Source of the DNA: Promethearchaeota archaeon | GTDB taxonomy: Archaea; Asgardarchaeota; Lokiarchaeia; Sigyniarchaeales; SOKP01 | Length of the DNA stretch: 64,000 nucleotides | Direction: 5' to 3' | NCBI GenBank assembly: GCA_030599585.1 | Contig: JAUVNS010000012.1 | Span: 64,001-128,000, forward strand | Shown: in pieces, positions 33,429 to 42,911 of the stretch | Layout of the letters: each line of letters opens with the position of its first letter | Numbering within the stretch: the stretch's first letter is position 1 | Translations under genes and position numbers: made by a program | The notes under the pieces: model-generated | Databases searched by the model: none | What the model was told of the DNA's origin: nothing | Seen by the model: the letters and a program-made list of their open reading frames with translations, nothing else

Positions 33429-34550
33429 TTATTTCTTCTTTAGGAATTGCTTATAAATTAGCACATAGTTTTTTACACTCACTACTTTAGGATTACGCCT
33501 AAAACTAGATGGGATAGGAGTGCTACAACGGGAACAGAGGTTTGAAGTCCGCATCCAATCTTTAAATTCATCAGCGTGGGAAGGATACCTACACTTTGGA
33601 CACACAACTACTCCCCGTCCTCTATCTTCAGGAAGTTTTGGTAATTTAAAACAAAAGATGCACTTAAAATCCTCTAACGTTAAATACGATGCCCTTGGCC
33701 TAAAATTAGTCAGATTTCGAACCTTTGGAGTCGATTTGACTTTAGTTGTACGAGAAATATTTGAAGTTTTAGTTCTAGTAGTTTGTCTACGTGATGTGGG
33801 TGTTATTCTTGATGATTTAGTTCTTGAGCTTGATGTACGCGTAGTTGTCCTAGTAGAGGGAGTTGGATTAGTGACCCTCGTTGTCCGTACACGTTGTCTC
33901 TGTGTTGTAGGTGAGGTCAAATTATTAATCGTTCTAGTACGGTTTGCAATATAATCACGAGTTAATGTTGGTAATGATGAGCTTGTACTAGCAAATCCAA
34001 ACACTATTACTATTAAAATTGTAGCTAATAATAGAAGTAAGAGATTCAAATCCAATGGAAAACTTTCGTTAACGCTGTAAAAACTTATCCAATAGGTTAA
34101 AATGAAAATTAAAACAGAGAAGGATAGAATATATCCCAAGGTTCTCGCTTTTACTGCTTTTGTTCCAAAATATATTACGTTGTATTTTTTAAAACAGCGA
34201 TATAGAGAGTAAGAGCCAAATATTATAAAAGGAAAAGCAAAAATAAGGCTCCATAAACTAAAATATAGACCTCCAAGTAGATTCTCTCCTAATACTCCTG
34301 TGTAAAAACCCCAAATAGAATAAAAAATTCCAATACCTAAAGGAACAATGACAAAAAATGCGGTATTATGTGGTGAATTAAACTCACGGTGACGTTTAAT
34401 GTTTTCAAATATTTTTAATGTAAAAATTAACCATAACCCAATTAATAACCAAGTTGCAAAATTAGTAAAAGAATAAGTGAGCAAACCATGAATTACACCA
34501 ATAATCAGAAATGCGGTAAATATTATTGTTAAAATTTTATTTTTAACCAT
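33429..34550 (-). CDS. Six-TM membrane protein with Thr/Arg/Ser-rich linker and C-terminal RING-like zinc finger (putative E3 ligase)
   Basis: Six hydrophobic segments; C-x2-C-x16-C-x2-C-x4-H-x2-E-x3-W-x6-C-x2-C; last gene of the Ubl-E1-E2-JAMM run. Confidence 0.7.
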   Translation of the reverse strand: MVKNKILTIIFTAFLIIGVIHGLLTYSFTNFATWLLIGLWLIFTLKIFENIKRHREFNSPHNTAFFVIVPLGIGIFYSIWGFYTGVLGENLLGGLYFSLWSLIFAFPFIIFGSYSLYRCFKKYNVIYFGTKAVKARTLGYILSFSVLIFILTYWISFYSVNESFPLDLNLLLLLLATILIVIVFGFASTSSSLPTLTRDYIANRTRTINNLTSPTTQRQRVRTTRVTNPTPSTRTTTRTSSSRTKSSRITPTSRRQTTRTKTSNISRTTKVKSTPKVRNLTNFRPRASYLTLEDFKCIFCFKLPKLPEDRGRGVVVCPKCRYPSHADEFKDWMRTSNLCSRCSTPIPSSFRRNPKVVSVKNYVLIYKQFLKKK

Positions 34551-34581
34551 GATTTGATATCACCAAAGATGTTTTTTATCT

Positions 34582-35406
34582 TTATTCATCATATTCTAAA
34601 TATGCTGGTTTTCCATGAATAATTGGGTTCATGAATTCCAAAATTTCTGGTAACATTCTCACATCTAAATGCCCCTTAATATCAAAAGGCACTGAGAACC
34701 ACTTCCGAGTTTTAAAATTTGCGCGATAAATTTCAAAACCAAAAGATTTCCCGTTAATTTGATATGGATCGATGACGAGTGCTACAGCTTTATTCCACAA
34801 TTTCTGATACCTTGCCTGAGTTCCTAAATCTTCTCTTGACATGAAGCAGCCGTAACTCGGATGGGAATGATACCAGCCTGTAATAAAAAGCCCCTTTTTT
34901 TTAATATCTCTGAAAGCTCTCACATAATTCTTATAATCCTTTATTTCAGCATAAACCGCGGTCCCATGTCCCATTGGATAAGCATCCTCCAAGTGTAAGA
35001 CTCCTTTAGCACTATCATAGTTCCCTGCGAGTAAACCTATTACTTCCACCCAATCATCTCTAGGTATTTTAGAATTAGCATATTTTAAAGAATGGCTCGC
35101 GATCTTAAGAATTGCTTTTGTAGTGATAGCTATCTTAGCTTTAGTTCTCTCGTTACTAGCTACAGTTTTTACTGGTTCCATGGGGATGGGTTCAAGTTTG
35201 ACTTTATTTGAATGAATAATCGGCTTCGCTTTGATAATCTCAGTTGTTATTTCTTCTTGTAATTCTTCTAATTGTAACTCAGTGTATACTTCTTCAAGTA
35301 ATTCTTTTTTAATTTTCTCTTTAATTTTTTGTTTTATAGCATCTCTGATTGATTCGCTATTCTTTTCATCGATATTCATTCTAGGTTCACCATTTATCCT
35401 TGGCAT
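34582..35406 (-). CDS. JAMM/MPN+ metalloprotease (Rpn11/CSN5-like deubiquitinase)
   Basis: EVIGLL, GWYHSHP..G..MS..D..TQ..YQ, ALVIDP. Confidence 0.93.
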   Translation of the reverse strand: MPRINGEPRMNIDEKNSESIRDAIKQKIKEKIKKELLEEVYTELQLEELQEEITTEIIKAKPIIHSNKVKLEPIPMEPVKTVASNERTKAKIAITTKAILKIASHSLKYANSKIPRDDWVEVIGLLAGNYDSAKGVLHLEDAYPMGHGTAVYAEIKDYKNYVRAFRDIKKKGLFITGWYHSHPSYGCFMSREDLGTQARYQKLWNKAVALVIDPYQINGKSFGFEIYRANFKTRKWFSVPFDIKGHLDVRMLPEILEFMNPIIHGKPAYLEYDE

Positions 35407-35914
35407 ACTTCTTTACTAAATTTTTAACTTTTTTATCAAAAAATTTCGGATTTTTCATCATTTCTATAGCTGCTTTTTTATTAAACACATCAGTCGGATT
35501 AACATATTTTCCTCGAGTGTTTAACATAGCAATTATTGCATGAACAACTGTAACCGCTGTTTTTGAAGGACTCCATCCTCCTTTTTTGCCAATTAGAGAC
35601 GGATCTACTAAAGCTAAGCAAATATTTCTTTGTCCTTTATATTCACTTGGCTTTGGCCAAAAATTTGGGTGCCATATTGGAGTATGCAATCTAACAAAAG
35701 GAGGCTGTTTAGGATATTGAATGGGAAACCTCATTTCTAATTTAAACAATCCTCCAGCATAGGCAGTGCCTTTAGGGCCTTTAATCAATACAGCTAAGTG
35801 ATCGATACTCTTTTTTTTTGGATTAAATGGCTTCAATTGAATAATAGTACCCTGTTTTAGCAACTTTTTTAGTCCCGCAAAATCTCGGGAAACTCGACTA
35901 CTTCTTATACTCAT
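35387..35914 (-). CDS. Ubiquitin-conjugating enzyme E2 (UBC fold)
   Basis: GP.GT.Y.GG.F...FP..YP..PP....T.IWHPN, NICL catalytic Cys, WSP. Confidence 0.93.
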   Translation of the reverse strand: MSIRSSRVSRDFAGLKKLLKQGTIIQLKPFNPKKKSIDHLAVLIKGPKGTAYAGGLFKLEMRFPIQYPKQPPFVRLHTPIWHPNFWPKPSEYKGQRNICLALVDPSLIGKKGGWSPSKTAVTVVHAIIAMLNTRGKYVNPTDVFNKKAAIEMMKNPKFFDKKVKNLVKKYAKDKW

Positions 35915-35969
35915 ATTCTTAACCCCGTTTTTTTTATTATATTTTAAAATTATGTTTTGAATTAAATTA

Positions 35970-37202
35970 TTATTTAATTTTTAAGGTTACATGAATTTCT
36001 CCGCCTTTAAACCCCGCAACGGTTAGAAATTCGTAATTCCTTAAATTATTTTGAGTTGGGTTTTGCTCTAAATCTAAAACAATAATATCATTAAAATCCA
36101 ATAGAGTTATTATCGGTTCAAATTCAGAATCCAATTCAAATCCATTTCTTTCTAGCGTATTAATTATATTTACGCAAGGTGAACTATCTCTCATTTTAAT
36201 GGAAACTCGTCTTGCACTTTTACCACATTGAGAACATTCTGGATTTCTCTTCTTTTCAATGTGGTGTAATTTCATAGTCATCGCATTAAATATAATGTAA
36301 TTTTTGATGGGCTCACCTAAGCCCTTGTGACCTTTTTCCCAATGAAGGATTTTAACCGCTTCATGAGATTGTAATGCTGAAATAGTTGCGTTAATCGTAA
36401 TGATGCCAGGATCGTGGCGATCAATAATTTTTACGATATCATCTTCAGTATATTCAGGTAAAAAATTATGCTTTATTACATACTCATTCGCAACTTTTTG
36501 AATAAATCTAATATCTTCGATATTTTTAGGATTCGGATCTTTATCAAATTTCTCTTTAAAGGCCATATCCCCTTTAAAAACGCAATGAATTCTTTTTCGA
36601 GGGATACCAACTACTGTACAAGCTGCCATATCATCATTTTGGATGTCGGGTAATGGATTACATTCATAACATGCATTTTGAAATGGAAATATCGTATATA
36701 CATGACCATAATAACCAGAAACCCCTCCATCTACCAAAGGTTTCTTAAATCTAATGCATTGAGCGTTTAAGTTCAACCTTGCATTCATTGAATCAAGACC
36801 TCCAATTACAACATCTGAAGCGTGATAGAGTGCTGGATTTAATCTTTCTAAGGATGTATGATACCCTTTAACAATAATATTAGGATTAATTTCGACCAAT
36901 TTTCTAGCAGCAATAAATGCTTTAGGTTCTCCTAACTTTGCTCCAGCAAAGAGAATTTGACGATTCAGGTTAGAATGTTCAATTATATCAATATCAACAA
37001 GATCTATATGACCAACGCCCAACATACTTAAATTCTTGGCAATTTCACATCCCAAACCACCAACCCCAGCGATTAACACTCTTGAATTTTTAACTAATTT
37101 CTGGGACCAACCTTCTAAACGAAATTGGCGATCGTATAAGTCTCTCTCTTCTTCTGACATTCCTTTTGTAAAAAAATCTGAATCCTTATGCAATATTATC
37201 AC
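35970..37202 (-). CDS. Ubiquitin-like activating enzyme E1 (ThiF fold with Uba2/Uba3-like catalytic Cys region)
   Basis: YDRQ, GVGGLGCE.AKNL, D.D.IE.SNLNRQ.LF, GLDS..AR, CYEC, ACTVVGIPR...HC, C..C. Confidence 0.93.
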   Translation of the reverse strand: MIILHKDSDFFTKGMSEEERDLYDRQFRLEGWSQKLVKNSRVLIAGVGGLGCEIAKNLSMLGVGHIDLVDIDIIEHSNLNRQILFAGAKLGEPKAFIAARKLVEINPNIIVKGYHTSLERLNPALYHASDVVIGGLDSMNARLNLNAQCIRFKKPLVDGGVSGYYGHVYTIFPFQNACYECNPLPDIQNDDMAACTVVGIPRKRIHCVFKGDMAFKEKFDKDPNPKNIEDIRFIQKVANEYVIKHNFLPEYTEDDIVKIIDRHDPGIITINATISALQSHEAVKILHWEKGHKGLGEPIKNYIIFNAMTMKLHHIEKKRNPECSQCGKSARRVSIKMRDSSPCVNIINTLERNGFELDSEFEPIITLLDFNDIIVLDLEQNPTQNNLRNYEFLTVAGFKGGEIHVTLKIK

Positions 37203-37282
37203 CTTTAATATTAATCAAAAAAATAAAAAAATTGAAGGGCTTAATGCCCTTATCATATATTATATTTTATGAAAAGAATTAT

Positions 37283-37615
37283 TTAAAAGTATCCAGCTGT
37301 ACTCGCTGGGATCAAAAGAATATCGTCGCCGTTACTAACACTATAGTCTTTTAACTGGCTACCTTCATCCATTGTTACGCCACCAGAACTAATGTGAAAG
37401 TCATCTGGATCAAGTCCAAATAAATTTCCAAGCGTTTGTTTGATATCACTTATGTTATTTGCGTCGTTTACAGTCAACTTTTCCTTCTTTTCACCAGGAC
37501 CAATAGTTGACATGAAATATAAAGTCAATTTTTTGCCTGTTGAGGGAACTTTGCTTGATGGGGTTTTAGAGCTAACTGGTTCTAATTCCTCATCAAAATC
37601 TTCATCAAAACTCAT
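37283..37615 (-). CDS. Ubiquitin-like modifier 1 (acidic N-tail; C-terminus ...STAG-YF)
   Basis: Beta-grasp pattern (ISDIK..L....GL......L..GG..MD....LKDY.V.NGD.I.L); first gene of the E1/E2/JAMM operon. Confidence 0.85.
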   Translation of the reverse strand: MSFDEDFDEELEPVSSKTPSSKVPSTGKKLTLYFMSTIGPGEKKEKLTVNDANNISDIKQTLGNLFGLDPDDFHISSGGVTMDEGSQLKDYSVSNGDDILLIPASTAGYF

Positions 37616-37876
37616 TCAAATCACTCCTTTATTTTTTTAATTTAAGTTTTTTTTTAAAACTTAATAATATCACGTTAAAATGATATTAAAAAACCCATTG
37701 GAATGATTTTGAAGTTTTTTGAGTTTTGTTTAAAATGTGAGTATCCATGTTAAAAAACCTAATATAATATATTTATAAATTAAATGAATGTCTATCAATA
37801 TATATAAATAGGAAAATATCGTTTTAGAGAGAAGATTTGATAAAATATATCAGTTAATTCAACCCGTTAAAATAAA

Positions 37877-38560
37877 ATGCTTATGAACACTCCGGATAAC
37901 CTTCAATCTATTGTTTGTGATATCATAAAGGAATATCTAAAAAAGAAACCTTTCTTTTCAATAGAAGATATAGTGGTGTTCATCGCTAATAGAGTGAGAT
38001 CGAATCCTAATCTAAATAGGAACAGCATTGAACTCATTATTAAAAATCTTATAAAAAAAAGAATTCTGATCCCTGGAACCAAATTAATGAAGAATAATAT
38101 AATAGAATTACCAATACGAAACGAAATTTACAACCATATTAAGAAACACCCATCGAACATTAATGAAATAATGAAAGCAATCAATATTGGAAGCAACCAA
38201 GCGCTCTGGCATTTGTCCACGTTAGAGAAGTTTAGATTTACGCGATCAAAAAAAATCAATAATCAAAGAATGATTTTTGAATATGAATCTAATCCCGATC
38301 TAGATGAGTTGTATTACTATTTGAAACAGGATGTTGTGCAAGATATTATCAACCTTCTGAAAGAAGAACACAAAACCTTTAAAATCACGGAAATAGCTGC
38401 GAATTTAAAAAGAAATTACAATACTGTAAAGAAATATCTTGAAATATTAAGAAATCTGAAAATAATAAAAATTGAAAAAAATAAAAAAAGAGTTCTATAT
38501 AGAATAGACCTAGAGAAATATGACAATCTCAAGAAATCAATTATTGATAATGAACTATAA
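37877..38560 (+). CDS. Multi-winged-helix transcriptional regulator (ArsR-like repeats)
   Basis: R.EIY..I...P...EI.......Q..WHL..LE and ITEIA..L...YNTV.KYL..L patterns; divergent from the Ubl operon. Confidence 0.75.
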   Translation: MLMNTPDNLQSIVCDIIKEYLKKKPFFSIEDIVVFIANRVRSNPNLNRNSIELIIKNLIKKRILIPGTKLMKNNIIELPIRNEIYNHIKKHPSNINEIMKAINIGSNQALWHLSTLEKFRFTRSKKINNQRMIFEYESNPDLDELYYYLKQDVVQDIINLLKEEHKTFKITEIAANLKRNYNTVKKYLEILRNLKIIKIEKNKKRVLYRIDLEKYDNLKKSIIDNEL

Positions 38561-38639
38561 AAATTACGAATTTATACCAATTGAATTTATAAAATTAGAT
38601 AATAATTAGAAAATTAGATAATACTTTAATCAAAAAATC

Positions 38640-39434
38640 ATGAAGAAAAAATATAGAGTTTTAAATATTATAACTCTTTATGTTGTTTTCGCTTTAATCT
38701 ATTTGACTTTCTTCCTATTACAACTAGATAGTTTACCATTATTCCTCTTTCTAACTATTGGGAGTGTTGCTGTATTATCGACAGGTACGATCTATACCGT
38801 CGTTCAATATAAAAGCAGCCCAGCGAAGAGGATAAAAAAAGACAAATATTATCAAAAGCCAAAATCTATCAAAAGAACTTCGAGTGAACTGATTGAGGAT
38901 TACCTTGAAGCTATGCCATTAATAGATCAATACGCTGACACCACTGAAACCTTTGAAAATATTGATTCAATCGATGATTATATTTTTACTTTTTTCACTC
39001 AGGAAGTATTAGATAAAATCGATTTGTTAGGGTTTTCAAAAATGGATAAAATCTTTTTTATCAGAGAGATGTTGTATTTTGATGCTGATGAGAGAAAGCA
39101 ACTTATTGATGATATTTTGAAAAATAAAGATTTAATTGACGAACAGATAACATACAACCCTCCATTAACCACAATTGGAATGGATGATAAAGTTCGCGTT
39201 TATGTAAGATCCTTAGTCGAACCGGGGGAGAGAACCAAAATCATCATTATTGAAACCTCCGAATTAATAGATATAATCAAGGAGCAAGTTGGAATTCTTT
39301 TTGATTATAGTTTGGAAGATTTTCATTTATCTTCGGGGGGAATTCTCCTTTCCACAGAAAAGCAAATAAAGGACTATTTTATTGACGATGATGACGAAAT
39401 TGCTCTGATTCCGTCGAGAAAAAAAGATAAATAG
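38640..39434 (+). CDS. Two-TM membrane protein with C-terminal ubiquitin-like domain lacking terminal Gly
   Basis: Two N-terminal TMs; last ~80 aa align with the neighbouring Ubls (PGE, DFHLSSGG, KDY, D.I.LIP) but end SRKKDK. Confidence 0.8.
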   Translation: MKKKYRVLNIITLYVVFALIYLTFFLLQLDSLPLFLFLTIGSVAVLSTGTIYTVVQYKSSPAKRIKKDKYYQKPKSIKRTSSELIEDYLEAMPLIDQYADTTETFENIDSIDDYIFTFFTQEVLDKIDLLGFSKMDKIFFIREMLYFDADERKQLIDDILKNKDLIDEQITYNPPLTTIGMDDKVRVYVRSLVEPGERTKIIIIETSELIDIIKEQVGILFDYSLEDFHLSSGGILLSTEKQIKDYFIDDDDEIALIPSRKKDK

Positions 39435-39450
39435 AATGAGATTTTTTTTC

Positions 39451-41109
39451 CTAGAGATTTCTAATTTCTTGAAACCTACTAATAACCCATTTTTTATCCA
39501 AGGCAGCTATGAATGGTGCAAACCGAGGACCCCTTGTTCTTCCAAGAAACAATTGATAGAGTAGTTCAAAGAATTGATTCATATCCTTACGATTTATTTC
39601 TGCTTCTTCTCGTAAGGTTATCATTTTTTGTTTTATATCTTCCTCAGTCCAGTTTGTTTCTTCGAGTGCTTGTCCAAGATCTAAAACAAAGTTACGTATC
39701 TTTTCGTTATACTGCCTTAAAACAACTGGCGAAACGTGTTTGCTTAATTGTATTCTGAGATGTTTTGGAGAATATTCTGATATTACCCAATTCTTAGCCA
39801 GATTTAATCTTTTTTGAATATGATCAGTAATCTCCTTTGATGGGCTTTCTTTTAACTTTTCTGTTGCTATTAATTTTTCAATAACTTGTTCAGTTCCCTT
39901 TTGGTCAGGAGTTACTAGTTGGGAATGAATAAGAGCAGTTTGATAGTCAAATTGGAATCCTCTATATTCTGGGATGTCATTATAAAACGCAATTTCATAA
40001 CTCCTTTGAATTGTATGAAGTTCTGCTGAATCGGTAAATGATTCTATTTTATGATAGATTCTCTGGGCTCGATCGTATTCTGCAATATAACTCGGGATCT
40101 TATCTAAACCCAGAATAATGCGTCTTTTTGGAGGTGTTTTGAGATATTTATATTTCAATACTTCTGGTTCAGCATATTCTAACCATTTTGTTGGTGTGAA
40201 CCCGATGAAACCTGAGCTTGTCATATCTCCAAAATCTTTTCGACCTTCTGAATAGCCAACCCATTCATTCCAAAATCCATATGGCCCTTTATGATTTAGG
40301 ACAGATTCTAGAACTTCAATACAACTATCACGGGATCCTCCTGGTGTAGCATGGTCCTTTCCATACGGTTCAAAATGTATATCCAGAACGTACCATATTG
40401 CCAACCATTCAAGCCGCCAAGTTAATTTTCCCTTGCTAATATCTGACCATCCGTCGTTCTTGCATTCATCACAGAAATAATGAACTTGGTAGGTATCAAG
40501 ATTAACTTCCAAAGCTTTTGTTGTACCTATTCGATTACAATGCTGACATAGTGGATTAATGGGAATCCAATTCTCGGGAAAAGGATTTTCTTTACGAAAT
40601 TTATTTAAGATTTCTCGAACCTTGTCCTTTTTGTTAATAAGCTCGATTACTACATTTTTCATTCTCTCCTGCTGATATAATTCATGAGTTCTGATGATCT
40701 GAATGCCTCGTCCAAATTTGGGCATTGGTACTCCAAAATCTTTCCAATAATAATCCACCCAGGTTTCTTTTTGATTGTTAGGAGAAGGAACATCGATTAA
40801 ACGCCAGTTAATAAATTCTTTTGCTTTCTCCAGATCTGGAAACGCATTTAATTGAGCAAGTTTCCCCTTCCATGGGTCTGATGTATAGAGAATTAAATTG
40901 TGTGTGGCTTGATATCCCCGATTTTGGAGTTCATTTACAATCGCATTCGCAAGAACAATCTCTCCTCTTAAGCGTCCGATGTGTTGTTGACCAGATACAG
41001 AAATTCCACAATTGCAATTAAAATCTTTTATTCCTAGCCAATTCTTTATTAGATCGGATGTTAATTTATCTATCCAATGCTGAGGTTGTATCTTTGGCTT
41101 CTCTGTCAT
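39451..41109 (-). CDS. lysS: Lysyl-tRNA synthetase, class I
   Basis: SG..HIG..RG, C..C, GKL.WR.EW...W, EPYGKDHA..GGS, MTSSG, GPR. Confidence 0.95.
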   Translation of the reverse strand: MTEKPKIQPQHWIDKLTSDLIKNWLGIKDFNCNCGISVSGQQHIGRLRGEIVLANAIVNELQNRGYQATHNLILYTSDPWKGKLAQLNAFPDLEKAKEFINWRLIDVPSPNNQKETWVDYYWKDFGVPMPKFGRGIQIIRTHELYQQERMKNVVIELINKKDKVREILNKFRKENPFPENWIPINPLCQHCNRIGTTKALEVNLDTYQVHYFCDECKNDGWSDISKGKLTWRLEWLAIWYVLDIHFEPYGKDHATPGGSRDSCIEVLESVLNHKGPYGFWNEWVGYSEGRKDFGDMTSSGFIGFTPTKWLEYAEPEVLKYKYLKTPPKRRIILGLDKIPSYIAEYDRAQRIYHKIESFTDSAELHTIQRSYEIAFYNDIPEYRGFQFDYQTALIHSQLVTPDQKGTEQVIEKLIATEKLKESPSKEITDHIQKRLNLAKNWVISEYSPKHLRIQLSKHVSPVVLRQYNEKIRNFVLDLGQALEETNWTEEDIKQKMITLREEAEINRKDMNQFFELLYQLFLGRTRGPRFAPFIAALDKKWVISRFQEIRNL

Positions 41110-41242
41110 TCTTACTTATCACTTTGAGATAGATGATTATTTATAATAATGAAGAATAAAAGAAAAATTTAATTGGAACTTGTTTTGGTGAGAGTTTCGT
41201 TTTCTGTTTTACTAGTGTTTTTATAAAGTCCTTCCAACTTAT

Positions 41243-41629
41243 TCAACCAGCAATGCTAGCTGGAATTAATAATATATCATCTCCATCAGCTACATTGTAA
41301 TCGTTAAGGTTAGAGAATTCATCCATGGTAACTCCCCCTGAAGACAAATGAAAATCAGATGGATCTAAAGCAAATAAATTCGCTACAGTATCTTTGATGT
41401 CTCCAATTTTATTCCCTGTGAATACAAGCAATTTTTGTTTTTTCTCCCCTGGTCCTATAGTGGATAGAAAAAAAACTGAAATCTTTTTTCCTTCAGGAGA
41501 CTTTTTGCGTTCTGGGGTCTTAACTCTAAAATCTTTTGTAGGGTGCTTTGAAGACGGATCGTCAAAATCTTCATCTAAGCTTTCATCAAAATCCTCATCG
41601 AATTCTTCGTCGAACTCCTCTTCATCCAT
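41243..41629 (-). CDS. Ubiquitin-like modifier 2 (long acidic N-tail; mature C-terminus ...SIAG)
   Basis: Close paralog of 37283..37615 (STIGPGEKK, DFHLSSGGVTMDE, GDDILLIPAS.AG). Confidence 0.85.
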   Translation of the reverse strand: MDEEEFDEEFDEDFDESLDEDFDDPSSKHPTKDFRVKTPERKKSPEGKKISVFFLSTIGPGEKKQKLLVFTGNKIGDIKDTVANLFALDPSDFHLSSGGVTMDEFSNLNDYNVADGDDILLIPASIAG

Positions 41630-41807: not shown

Positions 41808-42911
41808 ATGAAGGAAAAACCTATTCCTAAGTATCAAATTCGAGAAAAAACGCCCGAAGAGCAACTAGAACCCATCCCTAATGCGAAATTACTTAAAAAA
41901 ATTAAGGAAGAAAGAATTAAATTAAATAAAGAGAAAACTGAATGGGAACGAATTATTAATAAAATTGAAGGGTCTCAAGATAATATTCAAGATTTAGAAA
42001 AAAAAAGAAAAGAAAAAGAACTTCAAGTGAGAGATCTCCAAAACAAACACGAAAAACTAAAAACTAAATTAGATAATATGAGAAACGAAATAAAAGAAAG
42101 TAAATATAATCTCAATGCAAAAGAAAGGGAGTTAGACCAGAAAAATGCCGACTTAGAGCAATATAAAGAGAGATTAGACGGAATAAGAGGCGAATTAGAA
42201 AGCGAGAAGAAATACATAGAAAAAGAAAAAGAAAAAGCAAAAGACAGAATTAAAGAAATAAAAACCAAGTTACCCGGAATGGAACGGAGAGAGAATGCGT
42301 TAGAGAGAACAATCGAAAAGTTGGAAAACAATTTAATGGATTTACGAAACGAAGGTAAAAGCTTAACGAGAGAGAGAGATAACCTAAACAAAGAAATCAA
42401 TAGTTTGAGAAGAGAGATAATAGATGAAAAAAATCGAATTGATAATGAGAAAAGAAGATTAAAAGATGAAAAGGAAAAGGTTCGCTATAAGAAAAAAGAC
42501 TTAAGTCTTCAAGCTCGTGATATTGAGAAAAAAAAAGAGAAATTGGGAAAATTTAAAGAGAATGTAAACCACGACGTAAGAGATTTAGAAAGAAAGAAAA
42601 AAGGGCACGAGGCAAGGTTAAAAGAATTAGACCGGAAAGTACCCAAAGCTGAAGATACTTATTTTTCACTAGAACACAAAATTAATAATTCAGAGAATAA
42701 ATTGAAAAATTTAAAAACCGAAATAAAAAAATTGGAAAAGGAAAAATCGAAAATTGAGGATGATAAATTTTCAATTAGAAAGGAGAGGCAAAGATTAGAC
42801 AGTGATAAAGAGAGATTTCTTAGAGAAAAGAAAAGTTTTGAGAGAGAATTAAAAAAGGCAAAAGAAATACCAAAATATAAAATCAAATCAAAAACTCCTT
42901 CGAGATATTAA
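41808..42911 (+). CDS. Long coiled-coil protein with matching terminal motifs
   Basis: ~310 aa K/E/R/L heptad region flanked by IPKYQIREKTP and IPKYKIKSKTP. Confidence 0.75.
   Translation: MKEKPIPKYQIREKTPEEQLEPIPNAKLLKKIKEERIKLNKEKTEWERIINKIEGSQDNIQDLEKKRKEKELQVRDLQNKHEKLKTKLDNMRNEIKESKYNLNAKERELDQKNADLEQYKERLDGIRGELESEKKYIEKEKEKAKDRIKEIKTKLPGMERRENALERTIEKLENNLMDLRNEGKSLTRERDNLNKEINSLRREIIDEKNRIDNEKRRLKDEKEKVRYKKKDLSLQARDIEKKKEKLGKFKENVNHDVRDLERKKKGHEARLKELDRKVPKAEDTYFSLEHKINNSENKLKNLKTEIKKLEKEKSKIEDDKFSIRKERQRLDSDKERFLREKKSFERELKKAKEIPKYKIKSKTPSRY

Follow-up and report, generated by a model that had tools for sequence, protein, structure and literature searches.

We analysed a locus in a 64,000-nt stretch of DNA from a Promethearchaeota archaeon (contig JAUVNS010000012.1; the whole stretch is called the window, and coordinates are positions within it). 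The locus encodes a set of ubiquitin-type components: two paralogous small ubiquitin-like proteins, Ubl1 and Ubl2, an activating enzyme (E1), a conjugating enzyme (E2), a JAMM metalloprotease, a membrane protein with a RING-like domain, and a second membrane protein, here called TM-UBL, which joins transmembrane (TM) helices to a ubiquitin-like (UBL) domain (Table 1). A preliminary description of the sequence had named these genes, and each of its open reading frames (ORFs) is present in the ORF list at the position it had given, including the third, membrane-bound UBL, which is the TM-UBL protein with its two TM helices. The genes for Ubl1, E1, E2, JAMM and the membrane protein follow one another on the minus strand. 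Because the gaps between them are 80, 55, -20 and 31 nt, we consider these five genes to form an operon. Pfam families were matched by the E1 (ThiF, 4.1e-57), the E2 (UQ_con, 5.5e-25) and the JAMM protein (JAB, 1.6e-13) of the window.

Table 1. Genes of the modifier locus and its surroundings, in window positions
Gene product	Position	Strand	Basis of assignment
Ubl1, modifier precursor, 110 aa	37283..37615	-	ORF list, alignment, AlphaFold2 (AF2) model, fold search
E1, canonical-type activating enzyme, 410 aa	35970..37202	-	ThiF match, PDB matches, motifs
E2, UBC-fold conjugating enzyme, 175 aa	35387..35914	-	UQ_con match, PDB matches
Rpn11-like JAMM metalloprotease, 274 aa	34582..35406	-	JAB match, PDB match
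Putative membrane E3, six TM helices and C-terminal RING-like domain, 373 aa	33429..34550	-	Hydropathy, AF2 model, fold search
Ubl2, paralogous modifier, 128 aa	41243..41629	-	ORF list, alignment, ortholog neighbours
TM-UBL, 264 aa	38640..39434	+	ORF list, pairwise identity, hydropathy
Winged-helix (ArsR-like) regulator, divergent from Ubl1	37877..38560	+	Helix-turn-helix families; position conserved in Loki-class relatives
Lys/Glu-rich coiled-coil protein, 367 aa, divergent from Ubl2	41808..42911	+	Synteny
Class I lysyl-tRNA synthetase (LysRS)	39451-41109	-	Lies between the TM-UBL gene and Ubl2

A modifier family ending in Ala-Gly

Ubl1 has an acidic N-tail (aa 1-27) that includes the motif SKTP; its beta-grasp core (aa 29-103) leads to the end STAG, which is followed by Tyr-Phe. 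Ubl2 is 66% identical to Ubl1, has a longer and very acidic N-tail (20 Asp/Glu and 5 Phe in 46 aa) and stops directly after SIAG. Thus the canonical di-Gly is absent from both modifiers, as had been noticed at the outset, and in place of the exposed C-terminal Gly-Gly that defines membership in the Caldiarchaeum-type ubiquitin system they have Ala-Gly. The family alignment, comprising 72 members with 28–94% identity, has only three invariant columns, P103, A107 and G108, and a nearly invariant S105, so that the end reads P-x-S-x-A-G. In members of the conjugatable type, 0–7 unconserved residues follow the terminal Gly.

In the AF2 model of Ubl1, residues 29–103 adopt a beta-beta-alpha-beta-beta-3(10)-beta fold with predicted local distance difference test (pLDDT) values above 90, while the N-tail is disordered, in line with the disordered tails that the preliminary description had supposed. 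A Foldseek search with this model placed the ubiquitin of Caldiarchaeum subterraneum, solved in complex with Rpn11 (6FNO), first among PDB neighbours (E 6.6e-8), and the top 50 further included ubiquitin, ISG15, SUMO1, NEDD8 and Hub1. The profile and structure comparisons called for by the preliminary description thus put the fold of Ubl1 closest to Caldiarchaeum ubiquitin, with an identity of only 17% to the Gly-Gly ubiquitin encoded elsewhere in the same genome. Aligned with ubiquitin, the profile of the family runs without gaps over positions 11–69. Numbering by arithmetic from this alignment places Ala-Gly on Gly75-Gly76 of ubiquitin, equates the family signature DFH[LI]SSGG with ubiquitin residues 40–47, with Ser at the position of Ile44, and matches the nearly invariant Lys59 of the family to Lys27. 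Against the Ubl profile, the "putative ubiquitin" entries PDB 8HM1-3 scored slightly above ubiquitin itself, but they are ubiquitin homologues from Bacteroides and were set aside as not relevant.

The family is widespread. At least 851 relatives of Ubl1 were found in a set of 5.8 billion proteins, and a profile built from the three UBL domains of the window picked up family members in 192 of 400 genomes of the phylum, among them 119 of the 134 genomes of the window's own family, as well as in other orders and classes. The suggestion that these proteins form a distinct modifier family therefore stands, since the signature motifs and the P-x-S-x-A-G end hold across the 72 sequences and the family recurs in the 192 genomes. 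A literature search yielded no description of Ala-Gly-ended Asgard Ubls, its coverage being incomplete and absence not proven. The Ala-Gly Ubl also occurs as the C-terminal domain of larger proteins (P0127, P0129, P0132-P0135, P0138, P0153, P0177, L131:11072-12814 on the minus strand and L134:9557-10237 on the plus strand). By eye, the N-terminal parts of these fusions resemble a Zn-ribbon or a Roadblock/LC7-like domain, or else a P-loop protein of ~570 aa. Whole fusion proteins of this kind might be conjugated via their C-terminal Ubl.

Next, we considered the residues beyond Ala-Gly. Orthologs were typed by their neighbours, with Ubl1-type genes adjoining E1 and Ubl2-type genes adjoining the coiled-coil or TM-UBL gene. 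The coding sequence ends exactly at Ala-Gly in 35 of 60 Ubl1-type and 39 of 49 Ubl2-type genes, and the remaining genes of both types carry unrelated tails of 1–7 residues. The preliminary description had contrasted a "processing-gated" Ubl1 with a "constitutive" Ubl2, a split that is not conserved: because both types vary in this synteny-placed census, the tail is evolutionarily labile and does not act as a paralogue-specific gate. It is the N-tail that distinguishes the two paralogue types, with a median length of 136 aa and a median net acidic tail charge of 18 for Ubl2-type proteins, and of 110 aa and 3 for Ubl1-type proteins.

An exhaustive search also revealed three poly-Ubl precursors (P0121, P0122 and P0147), in which two or three complete units are arranged head to tail. 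Every unit runs from the acidic tail and the KTP motif through the beta-grasp to STAG, and the junctions between units lie at Ala-Gly; a two-residue cap follows the last unit in P0121 and P0122. Such precursors therefore require a protease that cuts after Ala-Gly, as for polyubiquitin, and the sole protease of the operon is the Rpn11-like JAMM.

Enzymes of the operon

The E1 carries the motifs GVGGLGC (46), NLNRQ (78), CYEC (178) and CSQC (323), which include the ATP motif and two CxxC pairs, and the stretch CTVVGIPRKRIHC (195), which contains Cys195 and lines up with the segment of human Uba2 that bears the catalytic Cys. The last 75 residues of the E1 may form a ubiquitin-fold domain. It thus combines an adenylation domain with a catalytic Cys, as canonical E1s do, and the Uba2/Uba3-like Cys region noticed earlier belongs to a canonical E1 of the Uba1/2/3 type. 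The best PDB matches were Uba2 (9e-38), Uba1 (5e-35) and Uba3 (4e-33), the Uba2 score being only marginally above the other two, followed by MoeB (2e-31), Uba5 (7e-14) and Atg7 (8e-10). The E2 has the UBC fold, with HPN at residue 82 and, 17 residues after the His, the active-site Cys, and it matched Ubc15, UBE2R, UBE2T, Ubc13 and Ubc9 in the PDB. The JAMM protein has a charged N-terminal extension and the motifs EVIG (121) and HSHPSYGCFMSRED (180). Its best PDB match was the Rpn11 of Caldiarchaeum (CsRpn11, 1.7e-16), ahead of eukaryotic Rpn11 and CSN5, and its Glu and HxH...S..D motifs align with those of CsRpn11, which places it among the Rpn11-like JAMM proteases. The catalytic motifs are kept in all collected orthologs, namely in 61/61 E1, 57/57 E2 and 53/53 JAMM sequences, as are those of the RING-like domain in 52/52.

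These enzymes bear on what kind of system the locus encodes. A single terminal Gly and an I-P-x4-G spacing could point to a UFM1-like (or ATG8/ATG12-like) single-Gly system, and the preliminary description had mentioned the single-Gly ends of UFM1 and ATG8. Beyond the single Gly, the likeness to UFM1 and ATG8 does not extend to the other parts. The E1 matches Uba2, Uba1 and Uba3 far above Uba5 and Atg7, the E2 belongs to PF00179 and has HPN, which Ufc1-type E2s lack, the protease is a JAMM and not a Cys protease of the UfSP or Atg4 type, and the top 50 structural neighbours of Ubl1 are ubiquitin, ISG15, NEDD8, SUMO and Hub1. On the scores for E1, E2, protease and fold, we rejected this reading as extremely improbable.

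It is also very improbable that the Ubls are mainly sulfur carriers of the SAMP/Urm1/MoaD/ThiS type, for which tagging is not the main job. The adenylation domain of the E1 does match MoeB/ThiF (1e-40, NCBIfam), and archaeal SAMPs do both jobs. Yet the Ubl has three conserved and co-transcribed companions, namely a UBC-type E2, a RING-like protein and an Rpn11-like protease, whereas the MoeB/UbaA-type E1 of SAMP/Urm1 systems works without E2 or E3. The E1 of the operon contains the canonical catalytic-Cys insert but lacks a rhodanese domain, and its score with the UbaA model is 112.7 bits against a cut-off of 450. Moreover, the fold is nearest to ubiquitin and not to MoaD/ThiS, the end is Ala-Gly and not Gly-Gly, and separate short E1s of the MoeB/ThiF type (246–290 aa) are encoded in the genome.

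Membrane proteins and conserved neighbours

By hydropathy, the membrane protein at the end of the operon has six TM helices, a linker of ~90 aa that is rich in Thr (26), Arg (17) and Ser (11), and a Cys-rich C-terminal domain. From the positive-inside rule, both of its ends should be cytoplasmic. The C-terminal domain has the RING-like pattern C-x2-C-x16-C-x2-C-x4-H-x2-E...W...C-x2-C, and across 53 orthologs C16, C19, C36, C39, H44, W51, C58 and C61 are invariant, with D46/E47 nearly so. The AF2 model of aa 282–373 has a pLDDT of 93. When this model was compared with known structures by Foldseek and VIA, every top match was a RING/U-box E3 domain (Z 6.3–8.3), many of them solved together with an E2; the matches included Ring1b/Bmi1, CHIP, TRIM21/25, RNF4, Rad18 and HRD1, the last at rank 11. 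The modelled structure thus supports a RING-like fold and makes the protein a candidate E3. Sequence profiles of the domain matched the IFT144 zinc domain (3e-4), RNF24 (0.028) and HRD1 (4). In the comparison of window positions 33432-33707 (-) with PDB 8bda_I, the C-terminal zinc domain of IFT144/WDR19 scored better than the classical RING-H2 proteins, and zinc domains of IFT-A and GATOR2 were also among the RING-like fold matches. For the TM part, no Pfam family was matched and no homology to Hrd1, MARCH or Doa10 was detected. A literature search, of incomplete coverage so that absence is not proven, returned no description of Asgard membrane RING ligases.

In the TM-UBL protein, two TM helices in the N-terminal part precede a C-terminal UBL domain that belongs to the modifier family and is 31% identical to Ubl1. 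Its C-terminus, SRKKDK, is without Gly, and its orthologs (P0128, P0130, P0143 and others) likewise end in basic tails without Ala-Gly, at a conserved gene position. Judged by these ends, TM-UBL is a non-conjugatable UBL protein.

In about 50 Loki-class loci, the genes follow the order coiled-coil, Ubl2, TM-UBL, winged helix-turn-helix regulator, Ubl1, E1, E2, JAMM and RING-like protein. The run Ubl-E1-E2-JAMM-RING recurs in four other families of the phylum, in two of them with the coiled-coil gene alongside. A gene order repeated in so many loci and families is not due to chance. This conservation also bears on whether the locus could serve in antiviral defence, like the bacterial Bil and CBASS-Cap2-Cap3 modules, which are built from the same four component types (Ubl, E1, E2 and JAB). 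PADLOC returned weak matches of the E1 to Cap2 E1-E2 models (4e-15) and of the JAMM protein to JAB models (4e-4). These are far weaker than the matches to ThiF and Uba2 and reflect a generic adenylation fold only, and there were none for the E2 or the Ubl. Unlike defence islands, the locus stays at one chromosomal position with one gene order in different genera, families and classes (50–96% identity), and it is flanked by housekeeping genes. With PADLOC matches that are generic only and a context that is stable across the class, we rejected the defence reading as improbable.

LysRS, whose gene lies within the locus in the window, was rejected as a component of the system, as Ubl2 abuts the TM-UBL gene in most relatives. 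The junction that it occupies is variable: in most relatives it holds no gene at all, and the nearest relative has two genes for subunits of a thiamine pyrophosphate-dependent dehydrogenase there (L050:5021-7040). LysRS is an insertion at this junction.

The coiled-coil neighbour shares a short motif with the modifiers. Of 50 orthologs of the coiled-coil protein, 48 have the pattern [IV]-x-[SE]-K-T-P within the first 40 residues and 45 have it within the last 25. The N-tail of 127 of 136 small Ubls contains [KR]-T-P, for the most part in the form VKSKTP; the KTP background is 0.09 per 1000 aa. A genome-wide search for further proteins with the KTP motif, as candidate substrates, gave almost nothing beyond the coiled-coil neighbour. 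One 383-aa ORF on another contig of the genome (G000 contig C32:61832-62983, plus strand) ends in KYQQITEKTP, resembling PKYQIREKTP at the N-terminus of the coiled-coil protein, and from this resemblance it may be another carrier of the motif. The K-T-P motif could serve as an acceptor or docking motif. A second feature is one of charge. The linker of the membrane protein is basic in all orthologs checked, distant ones included (15–27 Lys/Arg vs 1–5 Asp/Glu per 95 residues), and the charge of the Ubl tails is opposite to it. An acidic Ubl tail could contact the basic linker of the candidate E3 electrostatically.

Two probable ubiquitin-type pathways and their known counterparts

We propose that the locus encodes a dedicated Asgard ubiquitin-type protein-conjugation pathway whose tag ends in Ala-Gly, and we put the probability of this reading at roughly 75%. 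The process would begin with the JAMM protease, which would trim the residues beyond Ala-Gly, namely Tyr-Phe on Ubl1 and, in relatives, a different short tail or, in a poly-Ubl precursor, the following unit. The compact canonical-type E1, probably a homodimer, would then adenylate the terminal Gly and take the Ubl onto Cys195, from where the UBC-type E2 would receive it on its active-site Cys. The E2~Ubl would be brought to membrane substrates by the six-TM protein and its cytoplasmic RING-like domain. Ubl2 would be a second substrate of the same enzymes, gene adjacency being the basis for assigning both Ubls to the one operon cascade. TM-UBL would be a membrane-bound look-alike that probably docks a Ubl-binding component, and the JAMM protease would probably also reverse conjugation. 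In favour of these roles of the protease, its nearest PDB match, CsRpn11, processes pro-ubiquitin and deconjugates (PMC5654768, PMC6043591). The enzymatic steps, the pairing of Ubl with E1 and E2, the E3 activity and the substrates are what we infer from the components described above.

Several observations weigh against this proposal. The three UBLs of the window fall below the threshold of PF00240 (1.3e-4, 3e-3 and 8.6e-3). For the RING-like domain, VIA Z values of 6–8 are middling, RING matches by sequence are weak (E 0.03 or worse) with the IFT144 zinc domain ranking first, and only seven Cys/His ligands are invariant, the eighth position being Glu (or Asp46). Gene adjacency is the one basis on which E1 and E2 would be paired with their modifiers. 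Finally, Caldiarchaeum pro-ubiquitin with the substitution Gly77Ala, i.e. with an Ala-Gly end, is cut much more slowly by CsRpn11 (PMC5654768, PMC6043591). By analogy with this slow cutting, JAMM and E1 of the operon would have to be adapted to Ala.

A further consideration is that the same genome encodes a Gly-Gly ubiquitin. On contig C47 (G000 contig C47:25945-26232; L135:9946-10236, plus strand) lies a gene for a 96-aa ubiquitin that scores above the Pfam threshold (38.9 bits) and ends in QAGG plus a 13-residue tail. The gene stands alone, with no enzyme genes beside it; a 2929-aa ORF (L135:11051-19840, minus strand) adjoins it. Contig C34 carries a second UBC-type E2 of 169 aa (L136:7407-7916, plus strand), 35% identical to the operon E2, and, 1.7 kb apart, a second canonical-type E1 of 526 aa (L136:9625-11205, minus strand), which has the same CT...P...HC motif and a larger insert around the catalytic Cys. 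These are probably the enzymes of the Gly-Gly ubiquitin, and two ubiquitin-like pathways probably operate in parallel in this organism.

A query with the Gly-Gly ubiquitin found it in 147 of 400 genomes, including 111 of 134 in the window's own family; it was also present in 24 of 27 genomes sampled across the six remaining families of the class and in one further family, with an identity of 69–98% within the class. Both modifiers are present in most Loki-class genomes. Two closed genomes of the same order (G135 and G143, family f3) have the Gly-Gly ubiquitin, and the Ala-Gly Ubl profile finds nothing in them at E <= 1e-5. Some lineages of the Loki class may have lost the Ala-Gly operon.

If the solitary Gly-Gly ubiquitin were the true substrate of the operon enzymes, the Ala-Gly proteins would be unconjugated UBL adaptors. 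The lack of adjacent enzymes at the Gly-Gly gene speaks for this alternative, as do the long fusion proteins with a C-terminal Ubl in the family. Nevertheless, the Ala-Gly is invariant at 0–7 residues from the C-terminus in every member of the conjugatable type, and it is the TM-UBL branch that lost it. The poly-Ubl precursors imply the release of free units, the Gly-Gly ubiquitin has a second E1/E2 pair at its disposal, and this one query detected no Gly-Gly ubiquitin in some families that possess the operon. We therefore consider the adaptor alternative unlikely and return to the dedicated Ala-Gly pathway.

Several features can be joined into a more specific proposal, which is speculative and which we regard as possible though doubtful. 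The Ala-Gly pathway would serve membrane-proximal tagging, distinct from the ESCRT-linked Gly-Gly ubiquitin. The RING-like E3 and TM-UBL would constitute a module resembling endoplasmic-reticulum-associated degradation (ERAD) or MARCH systems. K-T-P would be an acceptor-lysine or docking consensus comparable to psi-K-x-E of SUMO, permitting chains and modification of the coiled-coil protein, and the acidic, Phe-rich tails would engage the basic linker. If this joint proposal were true, two specialised Asgard modifiers, each with its own E1-E2 pair, would have existed before eukaryogenesis.

In eukaryotes, several ubiquitin-like modifiers operate side by side, and each is served by an E1 and an E2 of its own. 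The Ala-Gly locus, together with a Gly-Gly ubiquitin and a second E1/E2, suggests that Loki-class archaea keep two ubiquitin-type pathways apart, which bears on when the eukaryotic style of modifier diversification began. With a natural Ala-Gly terminus, a poor protease substrate in Caldiarchaeum, the locus is also a natural experiment in the recognition of the penultimate residue by E1 and Rpn11. With five soluble-expressible parts and the RING domain, the system is small as well as widespread, and it is tractable in vitro.

Among known systems, Hrd1-HERP of ERAD and MARCH/Doa10 are alike in architecture only: a multi-TM RING-type protein adjoins a membrane-anchored UBL protein, and the locus offers a prokaryotic example of a polytopic RING-like protein beside a membrane UBL protein. 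The Hrd1 RING is among both the weak sequence matches and the fold matches of the RING-like domain, and the spacing C-x2-C...C-x2-C-x4-H-x2-[E]...W...C-x2-C resembles the C4HC3 pattern of RING-CH domains. In contrast to these proteins, the RING-like domain here is C-terminal and one ligand position is Glu.

The SUMO2/3 tail and SUMO substrates carry the psi-K-x-E acceptor motif. SUMO is alike in having a flexible N-tail before a ubiquitin-type beta-grasp, in Uba2 being the top PDB match of the E1, and in a short Lys-containing motif that is found both in the modifier tail and in another protein. The resemblance to SUMO drawn in the preliminary description thus holds for the disordered N-tail and, marginally, for the E1, whereas the Ala-Gly end, the single E1 gene and the JAMM protease depart from it: there is no Gly-Gly, no second E1 subunit of the Aos1 type in the operon and no Cys protease of the Ulp type.

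Within the Asgard archaea, the published and biochemically studied ubiquitins end in Gly-Gly and bind UEV/Vps23, and Gly-Gly pro-forms with short tails, e.g. GG-SPKN, are known (PMC9192718; bioRxiv 10.1101/2023.07.25.550441). Among these systems, a Helarchaeial set of E1, E2 and RING proteins has been reconstituted (bioRxiv 10.1101/2023.07.25.550441). The ESCRT-linked Asgard ubiquitin has in common with the present system the Asgard host and a eukaryote-like E1, E2, RING and ubiquitin. It differs in that the Gly-Gly ubiquitin of this genome is another gene on another contig, and ESCRT genes were not found among the annotated neighbours of the operon. Hatano 2022 reported a discrete "Ub region" in Lokiarchaeota (PMC9192718), which is probably the Ala-Gly operon.

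The closest counterpart is the operon of Caldiarchaeum subterraneum, which encodes the pro-ubiquitin CsUb, an E1-like and an E2-like protein, a small RING finger protein and CsRpn11 (PMC5654768, PMC6043591). Both loci cluster the same five component types, with a modifier precursor that has a C-terminal tail and a compact, single-gene E1 with a catalytic Cys; CsUb is the nearest structure to Ubl1, and CsRpn11 is nearest to the JAMM protein by PDB sequence. The present locus differs in the Ala-Gly end in place of Gly-Gly, in the acidic disordered N-tail with its KTP motif and the Ser at the Ile44 position, and in an E3 candidate that is a six-TM membrane protein whereas that of Caldiarchaeum is a small soluble RING protein. 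It also has extra conserved neighbours: the second Ubl, TM-UBL, the coiled-coil protein and the winged helix-turn-helix regulator. In conclusion, the Ala-Gly system belongs to an already known kind: it is one variant, and a widespread one, among the archaeal forerunners of ubiquitin.

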